Shown in pieces: positions 12,444 through 44,600 of a DNA stretch of 64,000 nt; position 1 is the stretch's first letter; each line of letters opens with the position of its first letter. Where the stretch lies: contig JBEKCB010000006.1 of NCBI GenBank assembly GCA_050015075.1, positions 15,811-79,810 of the forward strand, given 5' to 3'. The translations under genes were made by a program, and so were the position numbers. The DNA is from Candidatus Brocadiia bacterium. GTDB taxonomy: Bacteria; Planctomycetota; Brocadiia; CAIUPP01. Under the pieces are notes generated by a model. The model was not told where the DNA came from and did no database searches. It was given only the letters and a program-made list of their open reading frames with translations.

Positions 12444-12805
12444 TGGTGGAGGCGGGGGGAATCGAACCCCCGTGCCGTGGCACTTCAACAGAAGCTTCTA
12501 CGTGTGTGTTCCATCATTTGTCTTTTCTAGACCCTCAGGACTCCGATGGACAGGATTCCAGTTGGACCCGAGCCCGGACTTATCATTTCCCCACAACCCC
12601 GCCAGGCAGAAGGTTGCAAGTAGCCTGCTCTTGTCGCCCATTCCGGCCTCGCAGGCAAGACCGGATGAGCGTCGCAGCTAATTAGGCTGCGAGAGAGTAG
12701 TGCGTTTCAGCACTTAGTGTTTTTGCCGGGTGTTTAACGAGGCCTCCCGACAACCTCGACACGCCACTCCTGCATCATATTGCCCGGTCGAAGCCTTTCG
12801 CCCCC
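12444..12805 (-). ncRNA. ssrA: tmRNA (transfer-messenger RNA)
   Basis: On the minus strand the 5' end GGGGGCGAAAGGCTTCGAC pairs with the 3' end ...GGGGGTTCGATTCCCCCCGCCTCCACCA. This gives an acceptor stem with the G3:U identity pair, a T-arm GTTCGATTC and a terminal CCA. The internal tag ORF GCT GAA ACG CAC TAC TCT CTC GCA GCC TAA encodes AETHYSLAA, a canonical ..LAA degradation-tag ending. Confidence 0.92.
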
Positions 12806-13614: not shown

Positions 13615-14979
13615 CTACTGGGCCGCCTTGACGCGCTGGTCCTGAACTTCGACCGGACAGCCGGTGAAGGTGTTGCCCTCCAGCGTGATGGCCTCCGCCA
13701 CCGGGCTGATGCGGATGGCGATCTTTTGCTTTCCATCCCTGCTGTTCTCGAAGCGGCAGTTGACGATGGTGAGTTGGCGGGTTTTCCCCCTGATGTCCAC
13801 GCCGTACTCCCCTTCCGCGCCGCCATTGTCGCGAATCAAACAGCCTTCGATGCGATTGCGGTCGCCCTGGCGATTCTCACCGGGCTCTTCGCGGAATAGC
13901 ACGCCCACCTCGCCGTTGCGCTCGATGATGCAGTTGCGCATGACGTTGTCCGTGTCCCGGTGGCCGAAGTTCGTGCCGAACTTGAGGTTCTCGGACAACG
14001 TGCAGTCCTCGGCCAGGCCGTCGCAGGCCGCCCAGCACCAGTAGAGTCCCTGCGAGTTGCGTTTCGCGATGCAGCCCTTGAAGACCGGCCGCTGCGAGCC
14101 GCTGCCCGGATGGAAACCCAGGTCGCCGTTGTTGAGCGCCTGGCAGTTCTCGAAGTGCCAGTCGTCGCAGACCTGGAAGCTGAACCCGTCGCCGTTGAAG
14201 TCGCGAGCGGTCACGTTCCGGAACGTCCAGTGATTGCAGTACAGCCCGTAGCAGGCCCCGCCGTAGTTGTCGTTCAGCCGCGCATTCCCTGCGCGGTTTC
14301 CGTCGAGGACGATATCCTCGACCGTCACGTTATCCACGCTGCGCCCGTACAGGATGGAAAAGAGCGTCTCGACCTTCGCCCCTTCCTCCATCCAGAAATC
14401 CTTCTCGGTGCGCCGGTCCAGGTACAGAACGTTCTCGCGGATCGCCGTGACCGTGAAGAGCTGCACCTCGGTCACGTCATGCTCCGAGTCCGCCTGCTTA
14501 TTTTGGACGGCGATCCCGCAGCCGACGGTGAACCCTTTCGGGTCGGCCACCTGGAGGCAGTACTCGAACCAGTCGGCTTCGCGGACGACCGGCGAAGTGA
14601 CGCTGGGCGCTTTTTTCAGGACGGTCGTGTCGCCGGACCCGCGCAGCGTGATGCCCGGATGCAGGAAGATGGAGTTGCGCATCGTGTATGTGCCGGGAAG
14701 GACGCGGACGGTGCCGCCGCCGAGGCGGTAGACGTAGTCCATCGCGGCCTGGATGACCTTGTCGTCATTGCCCTGCAAGTCGCCTTCTCCCTGGCCGACC
14801 GTGACCTCCATTCGCTGCGGGTTGCGGATCGGCCGCATCGTGTTGAAATCAGCGGGCAGGTTCCGGGACATTCCTTTGGACTCCTTCATATCGGCCGCCA
14901 TCACGCTCGCCTGCGCGCCGGCGCAGAACAGTGCAAGCGCCAGCCATCCAATGCGTCTCGCGTCAATACTCGACTTCAT
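13615..14979 (-). CDS. secreted right-handed parallel beta-helix repeat protein (paralog 1)
   Basis: ATG 14979 with a GGAGAGGAAAG SD. Signal peptide MKSSIDARRIGWLALALFCAGAQA. Repetitive ...NV/NC..x..N.. beta-helix rungs (TFRNVTARDFNGDGFSF, HFENCQALNNGDLGFH, MRNCIIERNGEVGV, IVNCRFENS). Highly similar to 16155..17519. Confidence 0.7.
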   Translation of the reverse strand: MKSSIDARRIGWLALALFCAGAQASVMAADMKESKGMSRNLPADFNTMRPIRNPQRMEVTVGQGEGDLQGNDDKVIQAAMDYVYRLGGGTVRVLPGTYTMRNSIFLHPGITLRGSGDTTVLKKAPSVTSPVVREADWFEYCLQVADPKGFTVGCGIAVQNKQADSEHDVTEVQLFTVTAIRENVLYLDRRTEKDFWMEEGAKVETLFSILYGRSVDNVTVEDIVLDGNRAGNARLNDNYGGACYGLYCNHWTFRNVTARDFNGDGFSFQVCDDWHFENCQALNNGDLGFHPGSGSQRPVFKGCIAKRNSQGLYWCWAACDGLAEDCTLSENLKFGTNFGHRDTDNVMRNCIIERNGEVGVLFREEPGENRQGDRNRIEGCLIRDNGGAEGEYGVDIRGKTRQLTIVNCRFENSRDGKQKIAIRISPVAEAITLEGNTFTGCPVEVQDQRVKAAQ

Positions 14980-15083
14980 GGACACTTTCCTCTCCAACGC
15001 ACAACTTTCGTGTGGGCCGTTGCCGCTTCAGCCGGGATTCCTCGTTTGACCGTCCAACAAAGGGCAGTCAGTTTTCGTGCGTG

Positions 15084-16154: not shown

Positions 16155-17519
16155 CTACTTGGCCGGTTTGACGCGCTGATCCAGGACCTCGACGGGGCAA
16201 TCGGTAAAGGTGTTGCCTTCCAGCGTGATTCGTTCCGCCTCGGGGCTGATGCGGATGGCGACTTTTTGCTTGCCGTCCTTGCTGTTCTTGAAGCGGCAGT
16301 TGACGATGGTGATGTCGCGCGTCCTGCCCTGAATGTCCACGCCGCAGTCGCCCAGGGCGCCGCCGTTGTCGCTGATCGCGCAGCCCTCGAGGCGGTTGCG
16401 GTCGCCCTGGCGGTTCTCGCCCTGTTCGATCCGGAAATTGACGCCCGATTTGCCGTTGCGCTCGATGGCGCAATTGCGGAGGACGTTGTCGGTGTCCCTG
16501 TGGCCGAAGTTCGTCCCGTACCGGATGTTGTCGGACAATGTGCAGTCCTCGGCCAGGCCGTCGCAGGCCGACCAGCACCAGTAGAGCCCCTCGTAGTTCC
16601 CCTTCGCGACGCAGCTCTTGAAGGTCGGCCGCTGCGATCCGCTGCCGGGATGGAAGCCCAGGACCGTGTTGTTGAGCGACCGGCAGTTCTCGAAACGGAA
16701 GTCGTTGCTGCCCTGGAAGCTGAATCCGTCGCCGTTGAAGTCGTGCGCGATCACGTTCCGGAAGCTCCAGCGATTGCAGTTCTGCGCGAAAGCGGCGCAG
16801 CCGTAGTTGTCGTCCAGTTTCGCATTCTCGGCGCGGCTTCCGTCGAGGACGATGTCCTCGACCGATACGTCATTCACGTCGCGCCCGTAAAGGATGGAGA
16901 AGAGCGTCTGGACCTTGGCCTCGGTCTCCATCCAGTAATCCTTCTCGCAGTGGCGGTCGAGGTACAGGACATTTCCCTGGATCGCCGTGACGGTGTAGAA
17001 GGCGATCTCCGTTATGTCATGCTCCGCGGCCGACGGCTTGTTCTGGACGCAAATCCCGCAGCCGACGGTGAACCCTTTCGGGTCGGCCACCTGGAGGCAG
17101 TACTCGAACGCGTCGGCGTCGCGGGTGAGCGACGTGCTGACGCTGGGCGCTTTCTTGAGGATGGTCTTGTCGCCGGAGCCGCGCAAGGTGATGCCCGGCC
17201 GGAGGAAGATGGAGTTGCGCATCATGTACGAGCCGGGGAGCACGCGGACCGCGCCGCCGCCCAGGCGGAAAACGTAGTCCACCGCCGCCTGGATGACCTT
17301 GTCGTCATTGCCCTGCAGGTCTCCTTCACCCTGGCCGACGGTGATCTCCATTCGCTGCGGCTTGCGGATCGGGCGCATAGTGCTGAAATCGGCGGGCAGG
17401 TTCTGTGACATTCCTTTGGGCTCCTTCATATCGGCTGCCATCGCGTCCACCGGCGCGCCGGCGCACACAAACGCTAGCGCCAGCCATCCGATAGGCCTCG
17501 CGACTATGCTCGATTTCAT
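16155..17519 (-). CDS. secreted right-handed parallel beta-helix repeat protein (paralog 2)
   Basis: ATG 17519 with a GGAGAGGAAGCG SD. Signal peptide MKSSIVARPIGWLALAFVCAGAPV. Collinear with paralog 1 over its whole length. Confidence 0.7.
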   Translation of the reverse strand: MKSSIVARPIGWLALAFVCAGAPVDAMAADMKEPKGMSQNLPADFSTMRPIRKPQRMEITVGQGEGDLQGNDDKVIQAAVDYVFRLGGGAVRVLPGSYMMRNSIFLRPGITLRGSGDKTILKKAPSVSTSLTRDADAFEYCLQVADPKGFTVGCGICVQNKPSAAEHDITEIAFYTVTAIQGNVLYLDRHCEKDYWMETEAKVQTLFSILYGRDVNDVSVEDIVLDGSRAENAKLDDNYGCAAFAQNCNRWSFRNVIAHDFNGDGFSFQGSNDFRFENCRSLNNTVLGFHPGSGSQRPTFKSCVAKGNYEGLYWCWSACDGLAEDCTLSDNIRYGTNFGHRDTDNVLRNCAIERNGKSGVNFRIEQGENRQGDRNRLEGCAISDNGGALGDCGVDIQGRTRDITIVNCRFKNSKDGKQKVAIRISPEAERITLEGNTFTDCPVEVLDQRVKPAK

Positions 17520-17597
17520 GGACCGCTTCCTCTCCAACACTTCAGCCGCGATTTCCCGTCCAACCGTCCTCCAAAGCCCGGCCTCCTTTGGAGCGCG

Positions 17598-22718: not shown

Positions 22719-24494
22719 TCATTGCATCTGCGAGCCGAGGTAATTCATCACTTCCTGCGACGGGTGCGCGTCGCGGCGCACGTCGGCGAGCCAGGTCTGC
22801 CTGACGGTGTCGCGCTTGCGGGACAGGAGATCCTCGGTGATGCCCGCGATGTTCTTTTCGAAATCTGCGCGGTCGGCGGGCTTCACGGCGACCCGCTTCA
22901 GGAGGAAGACGGCGCGCGCGCCGGCCGGCTCCAGCGCCTTGCCCACTTCGTTGTCCTTGAGCGCGAACGCCGCATCGGCGAAATGGCTATAGTCGTAGTC
23001 CCCGGGCAGACCGATCCTCATCGCGAACCGGTATCCCATGTATTCCTTGGGACGGGTGAAGAAATCGCTCTTCCCGCGCTCCACGCAGTCCTTGAGGTCC
23101 TTCTGGATTTCCTCCTGCGTGAAGGAAAGCGCCTTCAGCCGCTCGGCGACCGCGGCCTCGATTTTCGCCGCGGCGGCGTCGAGGCTCGACGGGTTATCCT
23201 TCAACGCCTGCTCGGCCATTTCCTGCGCCAGATCGTATCCCTTCGCCGCGCGATAGTCCTTCTCGACCTGCTTGCGAATGGCGTCGAACGGCGCGGGACG
23301 CGGGTCCTGAATCTTCAGGATCTGAAAGATGAACTTGCCGTCGCGCGCCTCGAGCGTCACGCTGGGCCGGCGGATGTTCGAGGCCGACTGGCCGAAGGCC
23401 TTGGACCTGAGATCGGTCGCTCCCGGGAGTATCATGTCCGCCTTGTCGGCGGGGAACAGCGGGCTGACCTGGTGGACCAGGTTGAACTTCTTCGCGATTG
23501 CCGCGAAATCGGCGGCGCGGACTTCTTCCGATCCGAAAGGCACCTCGGTCTGGGTGGCGATCTCGTCGTTGACGTCCTTCATGTCCTCGTCCACGACGCG
23601 CATGGCCTCTTCCTTGCGCAGCTCGGCCTCGATCTGCGGGGCCACCTCGGCCAGCGGCTTGAACTTGGGCGGCTCGTCCGGCTTGGCCTCTTGCGGGGGC
23701 ACGCGGACGCGGTACTGGTCCTTGTGCGCGTTGTAATAGGCGTTCACCTGCTGCTGCGTGATGACGACGCTGTCGAGATATCGCGCGGTGGGACACAGGA
23801 GGTACTCGATGCTGACCTGCTCCGGTTCCAGGTAGCCGACGTCGTTCGGGTCGCGCTCCGGCGGGGTGTTCTTGTGTTCATCGTAGAATTCCTGCACCGA
23901 CTTGTCATCCGCGGCGACCAGCGGCGCGAACGCGTCGGCGCGGAGGGCGATGTATTCCGCCATGACGCGCTCGTTGTCGCGGGCGTACCAGAGCCAGGCT
24001 TCGTTTTCGGGGAGCGTCACCGACATCAGCACCGTGCGCGCCAGGGTGACGGCGGTCAGATAGGTCTTCAGCGAGTTTTCGAACGACTGCTCAGACAGGC
24101 GGGCCCGCTCGAGGAACACCGCGTACTCCTTCGCGTCGTAGCCCAAGCCGCTCTGAGAGGGGAAGCGCATCTTGAGGAGTTCGGCGATCTCATCGTCGCC
24201 GGCGTTGATGCCGTATCGTTTCGCCTCTTCCGCGAGGATGAGCATCTGCCAGGCCTGCGCCCGGGCCGCCTCGACGTCCGTCCGGCGCTGGCTCAGCGAA
24301 CTGAGCGTCATGGCCAGCGCGTCCACCTGCTGCGCCGGCACCGCCTTGCCGAAGATTTTCCCTTGCGGCCCGGGGGTCTTGGCGAACAGGTAGTTCCACG
24401 GCACGAGCCAGGTCACCATGATGACCACGCAGATGACGACGAGCAAAACACCGGCCTTCTCTCGCATCCACTTGTTCATATCGGCCATGTGCAT
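22719..24494 (-). CDS. PpiD/SurA-N-like periplasmic chaperone (membrane-anchored)
   Basis: 591 aa with an N-terminal anchor KAGVLLVVICVVIMVTWLV. It is a long, helical, Lys/Glu-rich periplasmic protein of PpiD-like length and layout. I could not recognise a clear parvulin motif. Confidence 0.45.
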   Translation of the reverse strand: MHMADMNKWMREKAGVLLVVICVVIMVTWLVPWNYLFAKTPGPQGKIFGKAVPAQQVDALAMTLSSLSQRRTDVEAARAQAWQMLILAEEAKRYGINAGDDEIAELLKMRFPSQSGLGYDAKEYAVFLERARLSEQSFENSLKTYLTAVTLARTVLMSVTLPENEAWLWYARDNERVMAEYIALRADAFAPLVAADDKSVQEFYDEHKNTPPERDPNDVGYLEPEQVSIEYLLCPTARYLDSVVITQQQVNAYYNAHKDQYRVRVPPQEAKPDEPPKFKPLAEVAPQIEAELRKEEAMRVVDEDMKDVNDEIATQTEVPFGSEEVRAADFAAIAKKFNLVHQVSPLFPADKADMILPGATDLRSKAFGQSASNIRRPSVTLEARDGKFIFQILKIQDPRPAPFDAIRKQVEKDYRAAKGYDLAQEMAEQALKDNPSSLDAAAAKIEAAVAERLKALSFTQEEIQKDLKDCVERGKSDFFTRPKEYMGYRFAMRIGLPGDYDYSHFADAAFALKDNEVGKALEPAGARAVFLLKRVAVKPADRADFEKNIAGITEDLLSRKRDTVRQTWLADVRRDAHPSQEVMNYLGSQMQ

Positions 24495-24608: not shown

Positions 24609-24637
24609 TTGACACGCTCGCCGGGCGGTGCGATAAT
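24609..24637 (+). promoter_or_regulatory. sigma70 promoter of the B12-regulated operon
   Basis: TTGACA (24609-24614), 17 nt, GATAAT (24632-24637). It lies about 20 nt upstream of the riboswitch P1 stem. Confidence 0.6.
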
Positions 24638-24658
24638 CCGACGAGTTGTTGCAACGCT

Positions 24659-24843
24659 CACAGGCGCCCGCGAGGGCGTGAAGGGAAGACGGTGAAATTC
24701 CGTCGCGGTCCCGCCGCTGTGATCGGGGACGAAAGCCGCATCGCGCGCAGGAAACTGCGCGCGCTTGGCCACTGTTCGGGGCGATCCCCGGACGGGAAGG
24801 CGCGGCAAGTAGGATGATCCGAGAGCCAGAAGACCTGCCTGTG
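24659..24843 (+). promoter_or_regulatory. cobalamin (AdoCbl) riboswitch aptamer
   Basis: P1 pairs CACAGGC (24659-24665) with GCCTGTG (24837-24843). Conserved core GAAGGGAAGACGGTGAAATTCCGTCGCGGTCCCGCCGCTGT, then GCCACTG...GGGAAGGC, then B12 box GAGCCAGAAGACCTGCC. A possible bulged terminator-like hairpin with a U-rich tail lies near 24941-24985. Confidence 0.88.
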
Positions 24844-25074
24844 CGCGCTTCGCTTCATGTCGCATGGCCCGCTCGCAGAGCGGGACATGCTAAGGCTCCG
24901 AGGCTGGGCTGATGAAGATGCGGCTGGGCGGCCACACCGATTGCTCCCCTGCGCCTTCGAGGCAAGGGGCATATTGTTGTTCCAACCCGCGCGCTCCATC
25001 CCTCGACCTCCGCCTCATGAAGTAACCCCGTCCGCGGCCTCCGGAAGAGAGTCCGCCATGGAAAGGAGAGGGAC

Positions 25075-26175
25075 GTGAGCAGTCAGCGTTATCCTGGTCG
25101 CACGGTGAGGTCGCGCAGGTCGGCGCCGGCGTTTGGGGTGGGCGCGTTCACGCTGATCGAGATGCTGGCCGTCATCGCCATCATCGGTATCCTGGCCGGG
25201 CTGCTTCTGCCCGCGATCACCGCCGCGCGCGAGCGCGGTCGCGAGGCCGCGTGCAGCAGCAACCTGCGCCAGCTCTTCATGGCCACGGAGATGTACTGCA
25301 ACCATTTCGATGAGTACTACTTCCCCGCCGCCCGCGACGTGAACACGACCAACCTCGAACGCTGGCACGGCATCCGCCAGCAGACCGGCACCGATCCGGT
25401 GACAAGTGCGCCGATATACACCCCGTTCGACCCGAGCCTGGGCAAGCTCGCTCCGTACCTCTACATCAACACCGTCGTCAACACCACCGGCACCGCGGGT
25501 AACACCGGCACCGTCGAGGCGCAGATCAAGCAGTGCCCCACTTTCGCCGGCAAGTGGATCGGCGCGGGCGCTTATGAGATCGGCTGCGGCGGCTACGGCA
25601 TGAGCCACCTGTACGTCGGCAGCCATGAATACAAGACGCCGGTCTACTATACGAGCGACGTGGTGAGCGCGCCGAGTACTTTCGACGACCTGACCGCCGT
25701 CGAATGCGGCTCCAACCGGCATGAAGTGCGCGTGCCGGAGCAGACGCTCCTCTTCGCCGATGCGGCCGCGCCGGACGCCAATTTCTCCGGCAAGGTCATC
25801 GAGTACTCCTTCGCGGAGCCGAACTACTTTACCAATTCCGGGCGGTGGGACCCGACGCTGCCGCCCTGGGGCGACTTCCATCCCGATCCGAACTATCCGC
25901 CCGACACCGTGGACCTCTCGCACTCGGACAATCCGTCGCTCCATTTCCGGCACACCGGCAATGCCAACGTCCTCTGGTGCGACGGGCACGTCAGCAGCGA
26001 GGGGCCGCTGTTCTCGCGGACGCTGACCGCGACGATCTTCTCAACCGGCTTGCAGACGTCCGTGGACTACTCGACGTACGGGCTCGGATGGTTCGGCGCC
26101 GACGACAACTCGGCCTTCCGGCTCGAGAAGAATACCGCGCAGTGCGTGCAGATCCCTGTTCCACCGGCGGAATAA
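25075..26175 (+). CDS. prepilin-type N-terminal cleavage/methylation domain protein with C-terminal H-X9-DG motif (DUF1559-like pseudopilin)
   Basis: 366 aa with a GTG start and AGGAGAGGG SD. The leader plus methylation motif is [26 protein letters not shown]. The C-terminal [13 protein letters not shown] is exactly H-X9-DG. Its stop TAA (26173-26175) abuts the cobC ATG at 26176. Confidence 0.8.
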
Positions 26176-26790
26176 ATGGCTGAATATCTCTACCTGGTCA
26201 GGCACGGCTCCACCGGGCCGGCGCGCGACGGCCGATATCTCGGCCGCACCGATCTTCCGTTGGACGCCGCCGGCCGGTCCCAGGTCGAGGCGCTGGCGCA
26301 GTCGCTCCGCGTGAAACGCAAGTGCGGGCGATGCGTGTGCAGCCCGCTCCAACGCGCCGCACAGACGGCCGAGATTTTGCAGTCCGCGACCGGTTGCGTG
26401 CCCGAAACCGACCCAGACCTGCGCGAGATTGACTTCGGCCGATGGGAGGGTAAGATGTTCAACGAAATCCGCGATTCCAGCCCCGAGGAAGTCGCCCAAT
26501 GGGCGCGGTTCGCGGTGGATTTCGCGTTTCCGGGCGGCGAAAGCCTGCGCGACTTTCTCGACCGGGTCCGGCGCGCGGCGGACCGGCTCGCCGCCGACGA
26601 CGCGGACACCGTTCTCGCGGTCACGCATGCCGGCGTCATCAAGATCATGCTCTGCCACCTGCTCGGACTCGAGGCGCGCCGGTACGTCGCGTTCGAGATC
26701 GCGACCGCTTCACTGACGGTCGTGCGCCTGTTCGAAGGGAAAGGCGTCCTGTCGGAAATGATCCGCGTCGAGCGGCCGGAGCCGAAATGA
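26176..26790 (+). CDS. cobC: histidine-phosphatase family protein, probable alpha-ribazole phosphatase
   Basis: 204 aa: YLVRHGST (RHG motif), ...VTHAGVIK. Its position in the nucleotide-loop assembly cluster supports the call. Confidence 0.7.
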   Translation: MAEYLYLVRHGSTGPARDGRYLGRTDLPLDAAGRSQVEALAQSLRVKRKCGRCVCSPLQRAAQTAEILQSATGCVPETDPDLREIDFGRWEGKMFNEIRDSSPEEVAQWARFAVDFAFPGGESLRDFLDRVRRAADRLAADDADTVLAVTHAGVIKIMLCHLLGLEARRYVAFEIATASLTVVRLFEGKGVLSEMIRVERPEPK

Positions 26791-26791
26791 C

Positions 26792-27337
26792 ATGGCGCAC
26801 ATTATCCTGGTGACCGGCGGCAGCCGCAGCGGCAAGAGCGCGCACGCGCTGGACATCGCGCAGCGCCTCGACGGGCCGCGCGCCTTCGTCGCCACCTGCC
26901 CGGCGCTTGACGACGAAATGCTGGCCCGCATTCAGATGCACCGGAACTCCCGCCGGCAGGCCGGCTGGCGGACGATTGAAGAAACCGACGACCTCGCCTC
27001 CGCGCTCGCGCGGGCCGCGGATTGCCGCGTGGTGCTGGTGGATTGCCTGACGCTGTGGGTCAACAACCTGCTCTATAACGCGGAGCAGGCCGGCCGCGCG
27101 CTGGAGGAGAGCGACATTCAGAAGCACTGCGAGGCGGTGCTTCGCGCCTGCGCTCCGCTCGCGGGAACGGTCCTTTTCGTGACGAACGAAGTCGGCTGGG
27201 GAATCATCCCCGAGAACGCCTCGGCGCGCCGGTTCCGCGATCTCAGCGGCCGTTGCAATACCGTCATGGCCGCCGGCTCGGACGAAGTCATCCTGGTCGT
27301 GTGCGGACTTCCCATCCATTTGAAGAAAGGAGACTGA
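26792..27337 (+). CDS. cobU: bifunctional adenosylcobinamide kinase / adenosylcobinamide-phosphate guanylyltransferase
   Basis: 181 aa: IILVTGGSRSGKSAHA P-loop, ...VLVDCLTLWVNN..., FVTNEVGWGIIPEN. Confidence 0.85.
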   Translation: MAHIILVTGGSRSGKSAHALDIAQRLDGPRAFVATCPALDDEMLARIQMHRNSRRQAGWRTIEETDDLASALARAADCRVVLVDCLTLWVNNLLYNAEQAGRALEESDIQKHCEAVLRACAPLAGTVLFVTNEVGWGIIPENASARRFRDLSGRCNTVMAAGSDEVILVVCGLPIHLKKGD

Positions 27338-27338
27338 C

Positions 27339-28406
27339 GTGGCGAACGTCCTGGAAGAAAGGCTCAACGGCATTCGCGAGCAGGATGCCGAGTGGCGCGC
27401 GAAGGCCCATGCGCGGCTGGAGCAGCTCACGATGCCGCACTGGGCGCTCGGCCGCCTGATGGACCTCGCCGAGGACCTGGCCGGCATGACGCGCTCCATG
27501 AACCCGCCCGTCGCCCGGAAGACCATCGTCACGATGGCCGGCGACCACGGCGTCGTGGCCGAAGGCGTCAGCAAGTACCCGCAGGTCGTCACGCTGGAGA
27601 TGGTGCACAACTTCGTCACCGGCGGCGCCGGGATCAACGCCCTCGCGCGCGTCGTCGGGGCGCGCGTGGTCGTGGTGGACATGGGCACGGCGGGCGATCT
27701 GGCGGAACTGGCGAAGAGCGGGAAGATCCTGTCGCGGCGCATCGGATCGGGCACGCAGAACATCGCGCGCGGCCCGGCGATGAGCCGCGCCGACGCCATC
27801 CGCTGCATCGAAAACGGCATGGAACTCGCGCTCCAACTCGGCGACTCCACCGACGTCTTCGGCTCCGGCGACATGGGCATCGGCAACACGACGCCCAGCG
27901 CCGCCATCGCGGCGGCCATCACCGGCTGCACGCCGCTGGCGGCCACCGGGCGCGGGACCGGGATTGATTCGGAGCAGCTCCGGCACAAGGTCAGCGTCGT
28001 CGAGCGCGCGCTGGAGGTGAACAAGCCTGACCCGACCGACGGGCTCGACGTGCTCGCGAAAGTCGGCGGCTTTGAGATCGGCGGCATCACCGGGCTGATC
28101 CTCGGCGCGGCTCATCTGCGCAAGCCGGTGATTGTGGACGGCTTCATCTCGACCGCCGGCGCGCTGATCGCGCAGACGCTTTCACCGGAGGCGGCCGACT
28201 ACATGATCGCCGCCCATCGCAGCGAGGAGTCCGGGCACGCGATCATGCTCCAGCATTTGAAGAAGAAGCCCCTGCTCGATCTCGGCCTGCGGCTCGGCGA
28301 GGGGACCGGCGGCGCGCTCGCCATGAACCTGGTGGAGGCGGCCGCGGCGATCCTGACCCGCGTCAGCACGTTCGACGAGGCCTCGGTCTCCAAGGCGAAC
28401 GCATGA
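27339..28406 (+). CDS. cobT: nicotinate-nucleotide--dimethylbenzimidazole phosphoribosyltransferase
   Basis: 355 aa: LTMPHWALGRLMDLA, MAGDHGV, GDMGIGNTTPSAAI, LRLGEGTGGALA. Confidence 0.88.
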   Translation: MANVLEERLNGIREQDAEWRAKAHARLEQLTMPHWALGRLMDLAEDLAGMTRSMNPPVARKTIVTMAGDHGVVAEGVSKYPQVVTLEMVHNFVTGGAGINALARVVGARVVVVDMGTAGDLAELAKSGKILSRRIGSGTQNIARGPAMSRADAIRCIENGMELALQLGDSTDVFGSGDMGIGNTTPSAAIAAAITGCTPLAATGRGTGIDSEQLRHKVSVVERALEVNKPDPTDGLDVLAKVGGFEIGGITGLILGAAHLRKPVIVDGFISTAGALIAQTLSPEAADYMIAAHRSEESGHAIMLQHLKKKPLLDLGLRLGEGTGGALAMNLVEAAAAILTRVSTFDEASVSKANA

Positions 28407-29161
28407 GACGCTTCATCGCGGCGATGAGATTCCTGACGGTGATCCCGTTCCCCGGAACCTGGGGCGCGGATGAAGCCTCGCTCGCCGGCAGCACGGTTTT
28501 CTTTCCCGCGGTCGGCCTGCTGATCGGGCTCGGCGCGGCGGGAATCGCCGCTTGCGCCGTCCGCTGGTTGCCGGCCGGTCCGGCGGCGGCGCTCGTCATC
28601 GTGGCGCTGCTGGCCGTCTCCGGCGGGCTTCACATGGACGGCCTTTCGGACACGGCCGACGGACTGCTGAGCGCGCGGCCGCGCGAGCGCGCGCTGGAGA
28701 TCATGCGCGACAGTCACGTCGGCGCGATGGGCGTCATCGCCATCGTCTGCGCGCTGCTGCTGAAGTTCGCGGCCGTGGCGTCCCTGCCGGCGGCGGAGCT
28801 TTGGCGCACCGCCCTGCTCATGCCGGTCGCGGGCCGGGCCGCCCTCGTCGTCACGATCGCGCTGCTGCCCTATGCCCGGCCGGGAGGCGGCCTGGCCGCG
28901 CCGTTCTATCGCAACCGTTCGATGCTCGCCGCGCTGGCGGCTGAAGTCATCCTGCTCGTGACGGCGTGGCTCGTCCTCGACCTGGCCGGACTCATCGCCG
29001 CGTGCGCCTCGCTGGCGGCGGTCCTGATCTTTGCGGTCTATACCTATCGCCGGATCGGCGGCGCGACGGGGGACACGCTCGGCGCGGCGTGCGAGATCGC
29101 CGAGCTGGTCCCGGCCATGGCCATGGCGGCCTGGTATTTTCAGGCGGGAGGCCATCCGTGA
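28403..29161 (+). CDS. cobS: adenosylcobinamide-GDP ribazoletransferase (cobalamin synthase)
   Basis: 252 aa polytopic membrane protein: MRFLTVIPFPG, GGLHMDGLSDTADG, GGATGDTLGA. ATGA overlap with the cobT stop. Confidence 0.85.
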   Translation: MRRFIAAMRFLTVIPFPGTWGADEASLAGSTVFFPAVGLLIGLGAAGIAACAVRWLPAGPAAALVIVALLAVSGGLHMDGLSDTADGLLSARPRERALEIMRDSHVGAMGVIAIVCALLLKFAAVASLPAAELWRTALLMPVAGRAALVVTIALLPYARPGGGLAAPFYRNRSMLAALAAEVILLVTAWLVLDLAGLIAACASLAAVLIFAVYTYRRIGGATGDTLGAACEIAELVPAMAMAAWYFQAGGHP

Positions 29162-30084
29162 ACCGCGCGCGATATTGGATTGCGGCCGCTGCCGTTGTCG
29201 GCGCGCCGGCGGTCCTGTTTCTTTGCCTGAGCGCACGCGCTGCGCCGGCCGCTGGAGAGCCGGCCCGCAAGCCCCCTCAGCGAATCGTCTCGCTCGCGCC
29301 CAGCGTCACGGAGATGCTCTTTGCGCTCGGCCTGGGAGATCGCATCGTCGGCGCGACCGACCATTGCGACTTTCCGCCGGAGGCCAAAAAAATCCCGCGC
29401 GTCGGCGGACTCGGCCGGCCGAATGTCGAGAAGCTGCTTTCGCTCTCCCCGGATATCGTCATCGCGACTGATCTCGAGCGCAAGGACCTCGCCGAGGCGC
29501 TGCGGCGCGCCGGAATCAACGTGCTGGAGTTGAAGATCGGCAATTTCGCCGAACTCTTCGAGGCCGAGCGGAAGATCGGCGATGCCGTCGGCGAGCCGGA
29601 GGCCGCGGCCCGGCAAGTCCGTGAAATGCGGGCTCAGCTCGACGCGGCGGCGAAGCTCTCCGCGGGCGTCCCGCGCGACCGGCTGCCCAAGGTCTTCATC
29701 GAGGTCTGGTCCGATCCGCTCATCACCGCCGGAGGAAGGTCCTTTCTCGACGACGTCATCGCGCGCGCCGGCGGAGTGAATGTCGCGCACGATCTCGTGC
29801 AGGATTATCCGACGATCAACCCCGAAAAAGTCGTCCAGTGGAACCCGGACGTGATCCTGCTCTGCTACATGACTGAAGCGAAGGACGCCGCGGCGCAGAT
29901 CGCCGGCCGGATCGGCTGGGGCGGCATCAAGGCCGTGCGCGAAGGGCGGATCATCGCCGACATCTCGCCGGACGCGCTGCTGCGGCCGGGGCCGCGCCTC
30001 GTCGCCGGAGTGCTGCAGCTCGCCGAGCGGCTGCATCCGCCTCATGCCGCACAGCCCGCGCCGCGAAACCCGCCGGAGAAATGA
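29158..30084 (+). CDS. btuF: periplasmic cobalamin/siderophore-type ABC substrate-binding protein
   Basis: GTG 29158 overlaps the cobS TGA. A signal/anchor YWIAAAAVVGAPAVLFLCLSA is followed by RIVSLAPSVTEMLFALGLGDRIVGATDHCDFP (BtuF-like). The track's 64-codon N-terminal extension is rejected. Confidence 0.75.
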   Translation: MNRARYWIAAAAVVGAPAVLFLCLSARAAPAAGEPARKPPQRIVSLAPSVTEMLFALGLGDRIVGATDHCDFPPEAKKIPRVGGLGRPNVEKLLSLSPDIVIATDLERKDLAEALRRAGINVLELKIGNFAELFEAERKIGDAVGEPEAAARQVREMRAQLDAAAKLSAGVPRDRLPKVFIEVWSDPLITAGGRSFLDDVIARAGGVNVAHDLVQDYPTINPEKVVQWNPDVILLCYMTEAKDAAAQIAGRIGWGGIKAVREGRIIADISPDALLRPGPRLVAGVLQLAERLHPPHAAQPAPRNPPEK

Positions 30085-30091
30085 ACTCGCC

Positions 30092-31063
30092 ATGAATGCG
30101 CGACGCGGTTGGGGCATGTTCGTCATCCTGCTCGCCCTCCTGGCCGGAGCGTGCGCCTTGTCGCTCCTGGCCGGCCCGTCGTGGGTTCCGCTTTCGGAGA
30201 TGCCTGAGTCAAACATCGTCCGGATGCGGGTCGCGCGCATCCTGCTGGGCATCATCGCCGGCGCGGGGCTTTCGGTCTCCGGCGTGATCTTCCAGGCGCT
30301 GCTGCGCAATCCGCTGGCGGAGCCTTACGTGCTGGGCGTCTCGTCCGGGGCCGGGCTCGGTGCGGCGGTGGCGATCGTGCTGGGTCTTAGCGGCACCGGC
30401 GTCTGGGGCGTGCCTGCCCTGGCCTTCATCGGCGCCCTGTTCACGATCCTGCTGGTTTACGGCCTCGCACGCACGTCCTCGGGCGCGGTCCCGGTGCCGA
30501 CGCTCCTGCTCTCGGGCGTCATCGTCGGCGCGGTCTTGAGCAGCATCCTGATGTTCATCGTGTCCACCTCCGAAGGCGAGAAACTGCACAACGTCATGTG
30601 GTGGCTCCTCGGAAGCCTGCAGGCGCTGGACTGGCGGCCGCTGGAGATTTCGGCCCCGCCGGTCGCGGCCGGGCTGCTGCTGGCGGTGCTCCTTTCGCGC
30701 GACCTGAACCTGATGACGCTCGGCGAGGAGCCCGCCGCGCACCTGGGACTGAACGTGGAGCAGACGAAGAAGCTGTTCTTCCTGGTGGCATCGCTCATGA
30801 CCGGCGCCACGGTGGCGGCGTGCGGGCTGATCGGCTTCGTCGGGCTGATCGTGCCGCATATCGCGCGGCTGATCATGGGGCCGGACCACCGGCGGCTGGT
30901 GCCGGCCGCGGCGCTGGCCGGGGCGACGTTTCTCGTCCTCGCCGACAGCTTCGCGCGCAGCGTGCTGCCGGTGGAAATCCCCATCGGCGTAGTCACTGCG
31001 TTCCTGGGCGGACCTTTCTTCCTGTTCATCCTGCGGCGCAGGACGTCGCCCTATTGGAGGTAG
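30092..31063 (+). CDS. btuC: FecCD-family ABC permease (BtuC-like)
   Basis: The start MNARRGWGMFVILLALLAG is followed by about 9-10 TM segments. The segment GLIGFVGLIVPHIARLIMGPDHRRL is typical of FecCD/BtuC. Confidence 0.8.
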   Translation: MNARRGWGMFVILLALLAGACALSLLAGPSWVPLSEMPESNIVRMRVARILLGIIAGAGLSVSGVIFQALLRNPLAEPYVLGVSSGAGLGAAVAIVLGLSGTGVWGVPALAFIGALFTILLVYGLARTSSGAVPVPTLLLSGVIVGAVLSSILMFIVSTSEGEKLHNVMWWLLGSLQALDWRPLEISAPPVAAGLLLAVLLSRDLNLMTLGEEPAAHLGLNVEQTKKLFFLVASLMTGATVAACGLIGFVGLIVPHIARLIMGPDHRRLVPAAALAGATFLVLADSFARSVLPVEIPIGVVTAFLGGPFFLFILRRRTSPYWR

Positions 31064-31065
31064 CC

Positions 31066-31845
31066 GTGCTCTCGGTCAAGAACGTCAGCGCCGGATACGG
31101 CCGGAAGCTCGTGGTGCGCGATGTGACGATGCGCGTGGCCGAAGGCGAGTTCGTCGGGCTGATCGGCCCGAACGGCTCCGGCAAGACCACCCTGCTGCGC
31201 GTCATCAGCGGCGTGCTGGCGCCGTCCGAGGGCGAGGTGCTGCTCCGCGACGCCCCGCTCCGGACGATCGGCAAGCGGCGGCTGGCGCAGATGATGGCCT
31301 GCCTGCCGCAGGAGCTGGCCTCGGACCTGGCGTTCACGGTGCGGGAGATCGTGCTGATGGGGCGCTCGCCGCATCTTTCTAGGATCGGCCGCGAGACGCG
31401 GCAGGATTCCGAGGCGGCCGAGAAGGCGATGGCGCTGGCGGACATCGCGGACATCGCGGACCGTTTCATGACCGAGATCAGCGGCGGCGAGCGCCAGCGC
31501 GCGTTCATCGCGATGTGCCTGGCGCAGGAGCCGCAGATCCTGCTGCTCGACGAGCCGACGAGCCACCTGGACGTCGGCCACCAGTTGTCGCTGCTCGACC
31601 TGGTCAAGCGGCTGAACCGCCGGAGCGGAATGACCGTCGTCGCGGTCTTCCATGACCTGAACCTCGCCTCTGAGTACTGCGACCGGCTGCTGCTGCTCCA
31701 CCAGGGCCGCGCCGAGGCGCTCGGCTCGCCGCAGGAAGTCCTCACGGCGGAAATCATCCGGCGGGTCTACCAGGCCAAAGTCCTCACCGAGCCGAACCTC
31801 GTCTCCGGCAAACCGCACATCGTCATCTCCGCCGGGACAGACTAA
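31066..31845 (+). CDS. btuD: ABC transporter ATP-binding protein (BtuD/FecE-like)
   Basis: GTG 31066 lies 2 nt after the permease stop. Walker A GPNGSGKTT, signature ISGGERQR, Walker B ILLLDEPTSHLD. The long N-terminal extension in the track (30598) is rejected. Confidence 0.85.
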   Translation: MLSVKNVSAGYGRKLVVRDVTMRVAEGEFVGLIGPNGSGKTTLLRVISGVLAPSEGEVLLRDAPLRTIGKRRLAQMMACLPQELASDLAFTVREIVLMGRSPHLSRIGRETRQDSEAAEKAMALADIADIADRFMTEISGGERQRAFIAMCLAQEPQILLLDEPTSHLDVGHQLSLLDLVKRLNRRSGMTVVAVFHDLNLASEYCDRLLLLHQGRAEALGSPQEVLTAEIIRRVYQAKVLTEPNLVSGKPHIVISAGTD

Positions 31846-40492: not shown

Positions 40493-40759
40493 ATGGGCAA
40501 GCAGTATCAGGAATTTGCGATCAACTACTATCAGGACGCAGACGGCATTTTCACCGCCCAGGTTCCCGCCATTCGCGGCTGCGTAGCTTCAGGGAGGACG
40601 CTTGAGGAAGCCTACCGGAATGCGGCGGATGCCATCGAGAGTTGCCTGGAGGCGCGCGCCAAAGTGGCGGCAACGGCCCCGCTGTCCATGCTAGTCCCGA
40701 GCGCCCTCCTCGTTGGCCCGCAACCTTTCAAGAATCATCGCAGCAACTTCAGGCGCTGA
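40493..40759 (+). CDS. HicB-family antitoxin-like protein, C-terminus apparently replaced or truncated
   Basis: The N-terminal 60 aa YQEFAINYYQDADGIFTAQVPAIRGCVASGRTLEEAYRNAADAIESCLE form the HicB N-domain pattern. The last roughly 23 codons overlap the convergent TIR gene 3' end and look non-native. There is no hicA upstream. Confidence 0.5.
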   Translation: MGKQYQEFAINYYQDADGIFTAQVPAIRGCVASGRTLEEAYRNAADAIESCLEARAKVAATAPLSMLVPSALLVGPQPFKNHRSNFRR

Positions 40760-41683
40760 AAATTGTTGGATGTCAATATAACCGTCAATTCCGTATAGGC
40801 CATCTATTTGCGCTTCGTCAAAGCGGAAGAACATAATGGCAGAACTCTCACGTTTCTTCATCAGGTCTCGGATAGGCCGCCACTCAAGCCCACACCATTC
40901 TTTCTTTTGATAATCGGCACAAAGGAACACGGCTATCAACTCAGATTGCTCGTGGTATAGACGCTGTAAGTACGTGTCGAGATTAGGGCGCGCAAACTCC
41001 GGTTTGTGATATTTATCGTAAAGGATCCGTTTCCTTCCCAATACTCTACCAAGGTCTTCCGCGACCATCTGCACGAAAGCGCGCCGCTCGCCGGGAAAGG
41101 ATAGACCGACTGCAAATCTCTTTCTCTGCTTGGCATCCTCTTTGCACGACGCTGGCGCTACAGCGGCCGGCGGCGTTACGCATGGCGAAGGCGCGACGGC
41201 TTCGCGTTCACGAAGCGCCTTACTGAACTCCCGTAAATTTTCCAGAATCGGGCCGGCCTGGGCTGTAGGCTTTGGTAGTATGCCGAGTTCTCTCCGAATC
41301 CCTGGCTCCCAATCAGCCGCCCGCCGATAATCCGAAGCGAGAAGCGAAAGCCCGCAAAAAAAATCTTCAATGTCGGAAGTCCCAGATTCCCCCCTCACAC
41401 AAGCAAGAACCTTATCCAATTGGCGTTGCGCTCGCGTCCGCCGCACCTCGTCCATATCATCTTCACTGACAACGCTGTACTCAGCCGCCGGAAGGCAGCT
41501 ATGTCTAGGTTCTTCTTTGAAGTGTGTTGCCAAGCGGTCGGCGATGGCCTTGGAATCGGTAACATAGAAGACGTGGGGCATTCCAGGGATGTCGGGAACC
41601 TTATCCATGCCTCTTCCCTGCATCTGGGGAACCGGCGAACAGGCTATGAGGAGGTATCGCCCGGCGCTCCTTTCCTTGCTCAT
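40691..41683 (-). CDS. protein with an unknown N-terminal domain and a C-terminal TIR domain
   Basis: ATG 41683 overlaps the upstream TGA (ATGA at 41680-41683); the track's 76-codon extension is rejected. The C-terminal roughly 140 aa are FAVGLSFPGERRAFVQMVAEDL...ILYDKY...LIAVFLCADYQKKEWCGLEWRPI. This is the bacterial TIR pattern, including the WC..E glutamate. This part of the gene is visibly more A+T-rich than its surroundings. Confidence 0.7.
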   Translation of the reverse strand: MSKERSAGRYLLIACSPVPQMQGRGMDKVPDIPGMPHVFYVTDSKAIADRLATHFKEEPRHSCLPAAEYSVVSEDDMDEVRRTRAQRQLDKVLACVRGESGTSDIEDFFCGLSLLASDYRRAADWEPGIRRELGILPKPTAQAGPILENLREFSKALREREAVAPSPCVTPPAAVAPASCKEDAKQRKRFAVGLSFPGERRAFVQMVAEDLGRVLGRKRILYDKYHKPEFARPNLDTYLQRLYHEQSELIAVFLCADYQKKEWCGLEWRPIRDLMKKRESSAIMFFRFDEAQIDGLYGIDGYIDIQQFSAPEVAAMILERLRANEEGARD

Positions 41684-44600
41684 GCCTTCGCCCCCGCTTC
41701 GGCTACGCCCGGCCAAGCGTAAGCGTGGCTCTTGGCAATCGTGTAGTTGGCGTCCAGCGTCGGTTGCAGAAGGACGATCCGCGCCAGCCGGCGCGCCATC
41801 GCGGTCACTTCGCGGGCTTCTTCGGCCTTCAACGCGCGGCCGAGCAATTCCTGTTCGCGGTAGCTGAGCCACTTCTTGATAACCTGATACCCGCCGATGT
41901 AATACTCCCACACTTTCGCGGGGATGTTCTTCCAGTAGGCTACGTCATTCAGGTACACGTCTGTTGTGTCCGCGCCCAACAGCGCAATGGCCTTGCTCAG
42001 TGAAAGCCCGCGCGCTTCGGCGGCGTTGCGCAACGCTTCCAATTCGGCCTTGTCATACGGACGTTGCACAATCCGCCCCTTGGCCGGCATGGTGACACCT
42101 TCCTTGCCCGCGTGCCCCCAACCGGCGGTTACGGCGAGGTCCGCCGCGTCCGGGTCCAAATTGCCGCCGCCCACTTTCGTCAGTAAGCCTACGGTTCGGA
42201 AGATCGGCTCCAACTTGCCGGACGTGACGCCTGTTACTTCGGCTTCGGTATCGAGCAACGCCGCCAATTGCCGGCCCAAGGCGGCGGACGCTTCCAGCGT
42301 CTTGCGCGAATCGGGAAGCGGAATGCGCGGCCAGTCGCGCCGGATTCCGTCGGCGTTTTCGGCTAGGTACGCCGGGCTGTATCCCACGGCCAGGGCGTGA
42401 AGCCAGATTGTACCTGCCGCGTCCGCGCCGGCGTCAGGGTCATTGATTCCCAATCCGGCCAGGTACGCGCGCGCGGCGGAGGAAAGATTCGCCGTCGGCT
42501 CGGAAGGCCCACTTGCATCATGGAATAGTCCCTTTGCTCTCCCGGCCTCCTTCTGCAAGCGGATCGGCACGAAATAAGCGTCTGTGTGCAGAACGTGTTG
42601 GTCGGCGATATGGCCAACCAAGTGGAAAGTCGCGCCATCCGGCGCCTTCGCCGCGTGGCAGCGGATCAGAAGAAACCTGTTTCCATGCCACGCTTGAGCC
42701 AGAAGTTCCGGGCGCACGCGGTTCCACAAGTTAGCGATTCGCTCAATATACGCCCACCGCAGGTCAAATGGTTTGAAAAGAAAACGCGCGATGTTGCTGT
42801 CCCGGAATCCGCTCGCGGTCAACAATCGCTTGCGAACATCGGCCGCGCAGAATCCGGCCGCATCGGTTGTCAGCCCGGCGTGTAGGCGGGCAACATCTTC
42901 AAGTGCAACATTGGCGGCATAGTATGCCTTCATCCGGTCCGCAATGGTTTCTTTCTCAATTGCGTGAGTTCCTTGCTTCCTGTTATCATTCAATCCAAGC
43001 AAAGGTTCAGCTTCCGCCAACTCTACAACGGCGGGCCACGCCAAGTATCCTGTTGCGGTTTCGATTGGGCGGAATGAATAGGCATTCTCATTACGTGGCT
43101 CGGCTTGCGTGTAGGCTGCATCAAATCGCTTAGCGTCCAAGGTGGCAAGTAGCTGGTGACGACGTTCTTCGGCTTTTGCCGCTTCCACGTCGTTTCGGAA
43201 AAGGACTTGCGCCTGCCCGCCAGCCTTGCGCGGCTTGCCGGTCTTGACCCATAGCGACGTTGCTACCCCCTGTTGTATGCCAGAAGAAAAGCCTCGAATC
43301 GCAAAGACGGTTTCACTCGTGCGTCCGTCCGAAGCGTACTCGGAAATCCTGCGGTCGCCGTGAAGGTTCTCAATCCAGAAGCGGTCGAAGGAATCCAGCA
43401 GGTGCTTGCGAAGGACCACAAACGACGGCTCACCCGTCCAAGATTGATTAGAGATGAAGGACACAACGCCCTTGCCACTCATCTCAGCAATGCGCCTCTC
43501 GGCCAGGCGGAAGAAGCGAACGTACAAGTCGTCAAGGTAGTTCTTCGTTATCCCCCATTCCTTCAATCCCGCCTTGTACGGTTCAATCAGTCTTGCTTCT
43601 TCATCAAGTGCGACGCCTGCGAAACCGTTATATGGCGGGTTGCCCAGGACAACGAGTATCTTCCTGTCGCGCTTGACGTGTTCGGCGGCATCCTTTTCCT
43701 GTTGCAGTTCTTCCATGAACCCCAAGACAGTTTGCTTCGGCTCCTTGGGCGGTTCCCAGCCGGTCAGGGCATTGGTCAGGTACACACCGACGCGTTCATT
43801 GCTCTTGGCGGAGAGCGGAACGCCGAGTCTGTGAAGCAGCAATCCCAATTGCAAGTGCGATACGACGAAGGGTGCGGGGAGAATCTCAAAGCCGAATACC
43901 CGCGTCATGGCGGCCTTCTTCAAGTCCGAAGCAATCAGGGCGTCGCCGCCCTTGGCCTTCAGCGTTTCGGCAATCTTCTTCAGCACTTCCACCAGGTACG
44001 CCGCAGTGCCGCAACAGGGGTCTAGCACGACAACGTTGGGATCGGCCAAGCCGTCGGCCAGGCCCAATTCTTCGCGCAGGACGGTATCCACGCGAGCGAC
44101 CTGGTATTGCACGATTTCGGGCGGCGTAAACCATACGCCCAATTCCTTCCGCAACTCCGGGTCGAAAGCTTCAAGGAACGGCTCATAGAAATACTGGACG
44201 GCATGTTCGCCCTGAAACTTCTGGAAGAAGACGGCGCGGTCCACGCGGTTCAAGGCCCCGGTTGTCCAGTCCAGGACTTCCACAAGCTCCAGGTCGCCCA
44301 ACTTTCTGGGCGTGGCGATCTGTTCATACAGGGCGCGGATGAAGGGGACGCGCAAGGAAAAAGCGCTCTCATGCCAGTTGAAGGCGTCTTCGCGCTCCGG
44401 GCGCTCCCTATGCCAGAGCACCCAGGCCGAAAAGACGCCGTAGAAGATCGTCTGAACCAATGTTGAGCGGAAGAAATGCGCGCCCTTTTCCCCTGTGAAC
44501 TTCATTCCCAGGGCTTCTTCAAGCGCGCCGCGCACGGCGTCCAGGGCGGACAAGTCCTTGTGGTTTTCGACGCGGGCCCTGGCGTCGCGCGCGTAGGAAG

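Follow-up and report, generated by a model that had tools for sequence, protein, structure and literature searches.

The stretch of DNA analysed here, referred to as the window, comprises 64,000 nucleotides (nt) from a Candidatus Brocadiia bacterium (assembly GCA_050015075.1, contig JBEKCB010000006.1, positions 15,811 to 79,810 of the forward strand). Our subject is an operon within it in which a cobalamin riboswitch precedes a gene for a prepilin-type protein with an H-X9-DG motif, followed by cob and btu genes of corrinoid salvage and uptake. We regard the product of the first gene as a corrinoid-acquisition pseudopilin that acts at the cell envelope and is switched off by vitamin B12, a reading to which we assign a probability of about 65%.

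The upstream region begins with a sigma-70-type promoter (24609..24637, + strand) that consists of TTGACA, a spacer of 17 nt and GATAAT, as the original prediction had stated; it has a TG extension and 11 of 12 matches. The region contains three promoter sites, compared to 0.7 expected from shuffled sequences. The promoter is followed by a riboswitch aptamer of the adenosylcobalamin type (24645..24856, + strand). The Rfam model RF00174 matches over its full length (positions 1-189 of 189) with 95.2 bits and E = 2e-22, three times the gathering score of 31.5 bits, and the B12 box AGCCAGAAGACCTGCC is aligned within the match; the riboswitch of the original prediction is thus borne out by the covariance model. 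Aptamers nearly identical to it precede the orthologous pilin genes. Within the gap of about 220 nt between aptamer and open reading frame (ORF) lies a hairpin followed by AUAUUGUUGUU (24938..24985, + strand, −14.6 kcal/mol). It is conserved at the same place in 8 of 8 orthologous leaders (−14.6 to −19.9 kcal/mol), and the sequences of the inner stem differ. Judged by sequence, hairpin and tract probably form an intrinsic terminator, that is, an expression platform of the terminator type. A Shine-Dalgarno motif AGGAG is located 6 nt before the GTG start of the pilin-like gene (25064..25077, + strand), and both motif and start codon are invariant across the eight orthologous leaders.

The prepilin-type gene (25075..26175, + strand) encodes 366 amino acids, and its stop codon TAA (26173-26175) directly abuts the ATG of cobC at 26176. 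Since the gap amounts to 0 nt, there is no space for a terminator or a promoter between the two genes, and terminator-like sites inside the operon are about as numerous as in shuffled sequence. The operon continues on the same strand with cobC (alpha-ribazole phosphatase, 26176..26790; TIGR03162, 174.9 bits with a cut-off of 162.9), cobU (adenosylcobinamide kinase/guanylyltransferase, 26792..27337; NF004469, 183.8 bits), cobT (nicotinate mononucleotide:dimethylbenzimidazole phosphoribosyltransferase, 27339..28406; TIGR03160, 431.5 bits) and cobS (adenosylcobinamide-GDP ribazoletransferase, 28403..29161; TIGR00317, 136.8 bits with a cut-off of 110). These are followed by three genes assigned with Pfam and NCBIfam, namely a BtuF-like periplasmic corrinoid-binding protein (29158..30084), whose GTG start overlaps the cobS stop codon (GTGA), the FecCD-family permease btuC (30092..31063, 323 amino acids) and the ATP-binding cassette ATPase btuD (31066..31845), with GGAGG 5 nt upstream of its start. 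The starts of the latter three were refined to GTG at 29158, ATG at 30092 and GTG at 31066, such that btuF has the length of its orthologs at locus L006 and btuC the same 323 amino acids as there. After this refinement neighbouring genes of the operon either overlap or are separated by no more than 8 nt, and the gene order and tight junctions of the original prediction hold throughout. Its further statement, that no TonB-dependent receptor is encoded in the window, stands as far as tested: a Plug or TonB_dep_Rec domain is present in none of the 24 window ORFs scanned outside the operon (at least 333 amino acids in length; shorter ORFs are covered only in part).

The N-terminus of the pilin-like protein carries the features of a class III signal: a short basic leader, G or A at position −1, a hydrophobic residue at +1, Glu at +5, and a hydrophobic helix of about 20 residues. 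The leader comprises residues 1-24 (25075..25146, + strand), with a predicted prepilin-peptidase cleavage between the terminal GVGA of the leader and F25. Within the alignment, F25 corresponds to +1 and E29 to +5, the latter being invariant in 117 sequences. The prepilin N-terminus is matched by TIGR02532 with 22.9 bits (cut-off 16.3) and by PF07963 with 19.3 bits, just below the cut-off of 21.2. The H-X9-DG motif, H293-X9-D303-G304 (25951..25986, + strand), lies within the clade signature FRHxGxxNxxWCDGHV and is matched by TIGR04294 with 20.8 bits (cut-off 19); H293, D303 and G304 are invariant or nearly so in the alignments. Leader and motif, both read from the sequence beforehand, are therefore each recognized by a profile above its cut-off. 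PF07596 (DUF1559, also named SBP_bac_10) scores 34.7 bits (cut-off 23.3). As only positions 2-44 of the 268 profile positions are aligned, we classify the protein as a divergent member of DUF1559, and precomputed Pfam labels on its orthologs are likewise graded 'weak' or 'faint'. The clade is instead characterized by the motifs NLxRWHG, CPTF, YExGCGGYGxN, EYSF, FRHxGxxNxxWCDGHV and GWFGxDDN. Outside the helix, R96, W97, G99, C154, E168, G172, Y174, G175, D229, F291, R292, H293, W301, D303, H305 and G338 are invariant or nearly invariant. Compared with the clade, the subfamily of the window protein has extra insertions totalling about 90 residues.

A confident AlphaFold model built on the alignment of 117 sequences (predicted local distance difference test score 88.9, predicted template modelling score 0.85) predicts the fold of a type IV pilin, in which the long N-terminal helix lies against a beta-sheet; the head, large, novel and specific to the clade, comprises about 300 residues. 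It replaces a model built on an alignment of 30 orthologs, which was unusable (predicted local distance difference test score 43). Foldseek finds no significant match to the model in the PDB, and the pilin profile matches PDB pilins over the N-terminal helix only. Three identities were considered and rejected. The model has no two-lobe fold of a periplasmic binding protein, as the Pfam name SBP_bac_10 might suggest; a BtuG propeller, BtuH domain or BtuJ is not supported, as the PDB profile matches are confined to the pilin helix; and GspG (TIGR01710) reaches 33.2 bits against a threshold of 88.85, over the N-terminal helix only.

These properties bear on the possibility that the protein does not polymerize at all, and instead is, once cleaved, an inner-membrane-anchored monomer that serves as a periplasmic corrinoid chaperone feeding BtuF-BtuCD, without any filament. 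The Pfam name hints at such a role, the operon links the gene to BtuF and BtuCD, the gene is an orphan without assembly genes nearby among the window ORFs tested, and with 366 amino acids the protein has a much larger head than typical pilins of about 120-200. However, the Glu at +5 and the class III leader are strictly conserved, features that are needed for filament assembly beyond mere anchoring, and the partner proteins at related loci (see below) are surface proteins rather than periplasmic ones. We consider such a non-polymerizing shuttle quite unlikely.

The association of gene and riboswitch is recurrent. A database search delineates a tight subfamily of orthologs (E ≤ 1e-76, 44-88% identity, 315-412 amino acids), with shorter paralogs of about 270 amino acids starting at E of about 1e-41. 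The closest genome match is a Candidatus Brocadiia metagenome-assembled genome (MAG) of the Planctomycetota with 92% identity. The orthologs were collapsed to 16 groups, two of which are cut at a contig end, leaving 14 that are informative for Rfam scans. In 11 of these 14 groups (44-92% identity) RF00174 is found 182-312 nt upstream of the gene. Full cobCUTS-btuFCD operons occur at the riboswitch-linked loci L006-L008 and L002, as well as at P0024 (called genes only). At L003/L096 the riboswitch-linked pilin gene stands alone and is followed by a PF01902 gene and rpoB. Because the riboswitch precedes standalone copies, the regulatory link is independent of cob or btu neighbours. One of the riboswitch-less copies, L094, immediately precedes genes for BtuF-like, radical-SAM, BtuC-like and BtuD-like proteins. 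We also observe that the riboswitch-less sub-branch (L001, 10001-11137; L094, 762-1853; L095, 440-1630) has an extra insertion, RWHGRKDPF...NPxTG..., and that a small radical-SAM gene is found downstream of the pilin gene in L001 and L094. The PF01902 gene (diphthamide-synthase-like, ATP-binding) at L003/L096 (3468-4178) has counterparts after the pilin gene at the paralogous loci L080 (6800-7471) and L163 (4800-5474).

Two peptide patterns and tblastn, applied without regard to RNA, supplied loci of the nearest paralogs (30-39% identity) from metagenomes as well as 185,579 species genomes. Their riboswitches were sought with a covariance model built from the riboswitches of the orthologs. An RF00174-type riboswitch is found upstream on the same strand in 90 of the 95 paralog loci with at least 3 kb of upstream sequence. 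Clustering at 95% identity leaves 101 non-redundant loci, 96 of them with the riboswitch, and clustering at 70% leaves 67, of which 62 have it. The riboswitch-linked paralogs span Planctomycetota, Verrucomicrobiota, Hydrogenedentota, Armatimonadota, Kiritimatiellia and Lentisphaerae, and for most of the riboswitch-negative loci the partner genes run off the contig edge. Rfam's own model confirmed all 11 loci tested, the weakest included; by their records these loci come from Hydrogenedentota, Pirellulales, Phycisphaeraceae and other Phycisphaerae, Armatimonadota, Verrucomicrobiota, Kiritimatiellia, Lentisphaerae, Planctomycetaceae, an unclassified Planctomycetota MAG and a MAG of the 'FCB group'. 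The spacing between riboswitch and pilin gene falls into two modes, one of about 50-330 nt and another of about 1.6-3.8 kb. The recurrent association with B12 riboswitches that the original prediction had required is strongly borne out, in 11 of 14 ortholog groups and 96 of 101 non-redundant paralog loci.

Several loci carry more than one riboswitch. Two complete tandem aptamers precede the cassette at five loci, mostly from Hydrogenedentota (L011, 5251-5786; L031, 5268-5886; L040, 413-1030; L041, 111-728; L023, 2242-2723), and in four of the five the pilin gene comes first after them. At L104 a second cobalamin riboswitch (4804-5023) is located just downstream of the pilin gene, which implies that consecutive riboswitch-controlled units exist within one locus.

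The nearest paralogs had been intended as negative controls and were rejected as such, being themselves riboswitch-linked, and as an internal control the fetched loci offer only two unrelated prepilin-type genes, too few for a comparison. With the paralogs unusable as controls, the argument for specificity rests on family size. A search with the clade profile yields 426,059 cluster representatives at E ≤ 1e-3, 224,791 at 1e-10, and 1,015 at 1e-30. Because there are only 1,015 representatives at this last threshold, the B12-linked clade is a small and distinct branch from which no generalization to the whole DUF1559 family can be drawn. It accounts for about 0.2-0.5% of the DUF1559-like superfamily, the only part linked here to a specific regulon, and the window holds a single member of it.

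The same counts bear on whether the gene merely stands behind the riboswitch by chance, or has an adhesive or otherwise B12-independent role, such as attachment to B12 producers in times of starvation. Most of the DUF1559 family has no link to B12, three ortholog groups lack the riboswitch, and corrinoid binding is a property that we infer. Such a passenger would nonetheless have to account for a riboswitch linkage that is present in about 95% of the non-redundant loci that are informative and holds over many phyla and in several gene orders, for riboswitches directly preceding standalone copies, for the fusion and coupling to BtuH homologs described next, and for a riboswitch-less copy, L094, that adjoins BtuFCD-type genes. 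The recurrence leaves this explanation disfavoured, and we judge it very improbable.

At many of the paralogous loci additional ORFs are located between riboswitch and pilin gene. They have no Pfam match over their main domains, with Pfam and NCBIfam assigning to the propeller and BtuH-like modules only sorting signals, and fall into recurrent modules: module A, module B, and DUF4465. The profile of module B matches the BtuH domain of Bacteroides thetaiotaomicron BtuG1 (8BLW chain B, residues 391-661, E = 1.6e-27) as well as BtuH2 bound to B12 (7BIZ, E = 4.4e-20), and shares with BtuH the motifs PAPGQF-N, SLGGFGG-I, NGNGL-DD-WY and F-I-WA-D. In BtuH2, the very domain that module B matches mediates B12 binding, with a Kd of 6.4 pM (PMC8941943). 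Module A is a beta-propeller that is often fused upstream of module B, the architecture of BtuG1, which consists of a propeller and a BtuH domain (PMC10404256). A specific homology of module A to the BtuG propeller was considered and set aside, since the profile searches did not show it. The third module, a DUF4465 domain, is found on the intervening protein at other loci; DUF4465 corresponds to BtuJ, a proven surface B12 binder whose homologs from the Planctomycetes-Verrucomicrobia-Chlamydiae (PVC) bacteria bind B12 too (PMC13616437, PMC13398666).

The arrangement was tallied for 99 riboswitch-linked paralog loci. The pilin gene is preceded by propeller and BtuH in 33 loci, by BtuH and DUF4465 in 17, by BtuH alone in 16, by DUF4465 alone in 5 and by a propeller alone in 2. 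In 24 loci the riboswitch directly precedes the pilin gene (in 3 of them BtuH and propeller then follow), and 2 loci are unclassified. Taken together, 76 of the 99 operons include a BtuH-like, DUF4465 or beta-propeller protein, 71 of them BtuH and/or DUF4465. The coupling is tight: the stop codon of module B usually abuts or overlaps the start codon of the pilin gene, and in several cases both are fused into a single ORF (P0123, P0124, P0143, P0201 and P0134, all among the top profile-search matches, and an ORF of 786 amino acids at L159). In the fusions, a signal peptide is followed by a BtuH-like or related domain (for BtuH, hhalign probability 100%, E = 6.8e-47) and by a membrane anchor, whose basic tail continues directly into G, FTLIE and the pilin. 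The basic cytoplasmic tail of the anchor would double as prepilin leader, with prepilin peptidase separating both proteins. Such a fusion is topologically coherent.

The partner proteins end in PEP-CTERM, IPTL-CTERM or dockerin-like modules, and on account of these ends we regard a location at the surface as probable. In many BtuH-like proteins the C-terminus is formed by a dockerin-like or EF-hand calcium-binding repeat (PDB dockerin matches at E of about 1e-4), for example the C-terminal 60 or so residues of the protein encoded at L061, 2072-3283; such ends hint at a cohesin-like docking partner. A TonB-dependent receptor is found among none of the cassette ORFs tested.

The adjacency could also mean that the pilin-like protein is a subunit of a type-II-secretion-like endopilus, which exports or displays the BtuH-like, BtuJ-like and propeller binders and has no part in corrinoid handling. 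Tight linkage to genes of secreted B12 binders, overlapping stop and start codons and in-frame fusions are all compatible with such a function, and the PEP-CTERM, IPTL-CTERM and dockerin-like ends imply sorting to the surface. Exosortases, however, and not type II secretion, are generally held responsible for the sorting of PEP-CTERM and IPTL-CTERM proteins. Moreover, secreted cargo is absent from the operons of the window and its orthologs, which encode cytoplasmic Cob enzymes and BtuFCD, the pilin of L094 is paired directly with a BtuF-type importer, and at least 30 loci have the pilin alone behind the riboswitch. We hold a purely secretory role to be unlikely.

Further observations concern the genes downstream of the pilin gene, which vary among loci. 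A dipeptidyl peptidase IV or prolyl-oligopeptidase (S9) gene follows directly at L027 (6775-9105), L061 (4208-6433), L083 (6807-9098), L138 (5467-8100) and L166 (4781-7048), and the peptidase might release protein-bound corrinoids. Loci of Pirellulales and Phycisphaerae have a ComF/GntX-family phosphoribosyltransferase-like gene immediately after the pilin gene (L013, 6870-7625; L060, 6894-7649; L069, 6857-7633; L075, 6875-7621; L080, 7471-8274; duplicates at L102, L118, L146 and L163). ComF proteins are otherwise tied to pilus-dependent DNA uptake. A URO-D/MtaA-like gene (PF01208) occurs after pilin genes that directly follow the riboswitch at L035 (5050-6213), L107 (4845-6086), L113 (4998-6164) and L114. 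Of these, L035 is labelled as the MAG of a Bathyarchaeia archaeon, and its cassette looks bacterial, which suggests mis-binning.

We therefore return to the pilin-like protein as an envelope component of corrinoid acquisition. Regulons of cobalamin riboswitches comprise transport, biosynthesis and salvage, cobalt supply, and B12-independent isozymes. Because the pilin is a non-enzymatic envelope protein coupled to BtuH and BtuJ within such a regulon, its role fits transport. Ample adenosylcobalamin would be bound by the aptamer, upon which the conserved hairpin and the U-rich tract would stop transcription, possibly aided by occlusion of the ribosome-binding site. Under corrinoid shortage the whole operon would be transcribed. 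Prepilin peptidase would cut the basic leader of 24 residues before Phe25, and the hydrophobic helix with its Glu5 would anchor the protein in the inner membrane and permit its entry into a type IV filament, which might be an endopilus, similar to type II secretion, or a pilus. The head would receive corrinoid directly in the lineage of the window, and from the co-encoded BtuH-like, BtuJ-like or beta-propeller surface binders in most other lineages, and would hand it on toward BtuF-BtuCD. After import, CobU, CobT, CobS and CobC would complete or remodel the cofactor.

A number of findings weigh against this reading. The putative terminator has an interrupted U-tract, and the leader as a whole folds no more stably than shuffled sequence (z = 0.30), only the local hairpin being conserved. 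No recognizable B12-binding motif was identified in the head, and corrinoid binding by it is putative. Three ortholog groups (L001, L093/L094 and L095) have no riboswitch, in the case of L001 even at a permissive threshold. Genes for pilus assembly or type II secretion are not found near the gene, among the same 24 window ORFs. The absence of TonB-dependent receptors extends to the window and the fetched cassettes, and BtuB may be encoded elsewhere in the genome. Finally, BtuH, BtuJ or propeller partners are absent from the window and from the orthologous loci, and for this reason the argument from BtuH/BtuJ partnership reaches the lineage of the window by homology only. In balance, the role in corrinoid capture or envelope crossing suggested by the original prediction is supported for the clade, given its linkage to riboswitches, btu genes, BtuH and BtuJ and the fusions with BtuH, of which the partnership with BtuH and BtuJ exceeds what that prediction had put forward; its extension to the DUF1559 family as a whole is not, the clade comprising only about 1,000 representatives.

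The surroundings of the operon contain several other features. A SurA/PpiD-like periplasmic chaperone (22719-24494, − strand) is divergent from the riboswitch promoter, a synteny that is kept in L002, L006 and L007. A transfer-messenger RNA gene is located at 12444-12805 (− strand; RF00023, 167 bits). Two genes a short distance apart (13615-14997 and 16155-17540, both − strand) encode paralogs of about 460 amino acids with a right-handed beta-helix of the pectate-lyase-like kind. A Type ISP restriction-modification enzyme (N6_Mtase and Type_ISP_C, 1189 amino acids; 40691-45249, − strand) adjoins a TIR-domain protein of 406 amino acids, and the two probably constitute a defence island.

The consequences depend on how far the reading is carried. 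One defined clade of DUF1559/H-X9-DG proteins, which with more than 200,000 cluster representatives rank among the largest families without an assigned function, gains a testable context, corrinoid acquisition, and the extracellular B12 relay by BtuH and BtuJ is extended from gut Bacteroidota to environmental PVC bacteria, Hydrogenedentota and Armatimonadota. Predictions of B12 auxotrophy and cross-feeding in metagenomes are refined, as the genes concerned are currently annotated only as 'prepilin-type'. The type of system is already known, and our results suggest that what is new is a core component class in riboswitch-controlled corrinoid acquisition. If the pilin does move B12 across the envelope, it would represent a new mode of vitamin uptake and offer a handle on substrate import in planctomycetes. 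A bolder version holds that a type IV filament is the B12 import route that replaces BtuB in PVC bacteria, Hydrogenedentota, Armatimonadota and relatives, with the clade as a substrate-specific subunit fed by BtuH- and BtuJ-type binders and, by extension, the hundreds of thousands of DUF1559/H-X9-DG paralogs as a repertoire of substrate-specific uptake pilins. Filament-mediated vitamin import in place of BtuB would be categorically new, and such a repertoire would explain nutrient uptake in these bacteria; we regard this version as doubtful, a minority reading.

Full-text literature searches returned no link between DUF1559, H-X9-DG, prepilins or pilins on the one hand and cobalamin riboswitches or BtuH on the other. 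A published analysis of DUF4465 neighbourhoods lists TonB barrels, propellers and ABC transporters and does not mention pilins. DUF1559 is the largest paralog group in Planctopirus limnophila, with 68 copies, two of them essential, and no function assigned (PMC10632474). The clade resembles the generic DUF1559/H-X9-DG proteins of Planctomycetota in its prepilin leader, in the DUF1559 segment at the N-terminus and in the H-X9-DG motif, but it matches only the first 44 or so Pfam positions and has motifs of its own (RWHG, GCGGYG, EYSF, WCDGHV, GWFG).

The closest functional counterpart is the Btu relay of B. thetaiotaomicron (BtuJ to BtuH/BtuK, to BtuG-BtuB, to BtuFCD). Both systems combine cobalamin riboswitches, surface B12 binders and BtuFCD, and the related loci encode BtuH-domain and DUF4465/BtuJ homologs, with the propeller-then-BtuH order of BtuG1. 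The Bacteroides core, however, consists of the TonB-dependent BtuB with its BtuG lid, whereas here a prepilin-type protein takes the core position. Instead of the lipoprotein signals of Bacteroidota, the binders have PEP-CTERM, IPTL-CTERM or dockerin-like modules at their ends, and the operon of the window is without BtuG, BtuH and BtuJ.

Among pilin-like systems, the type II secretion pseudopilins (GspG-K) share the N-terminal helix and the core fold, but the window gene is located outside any gsp operon and under a riboswitch, together with import and salvage genes. Compared with DNA-uptake pseudopili and DNA-binding minor pilins (ComP of Neisseria, ComGC, the competence pilins of Thermus), the substrate of the proposed uptake would be a vitamin of 1.3-1.6 kDa instead of DNA. 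The head has two to three times the size of theirs and an unrelated sequence, and no machinery genes adjoin. In the same phylum, the 'fishing-rod' hypothesis of polysaccharide uptake by Planctomycetes (Boedeker et al. 2017, as described in PMC12078418) likewise envisages that pilin-like proteins bind substrates outside the cell and draw these into the periplasm. As described there, it concerns polysaccharides and names no pilin genes, whereas the association reported here connects a defined pilin clade to a small-molecule regulon.

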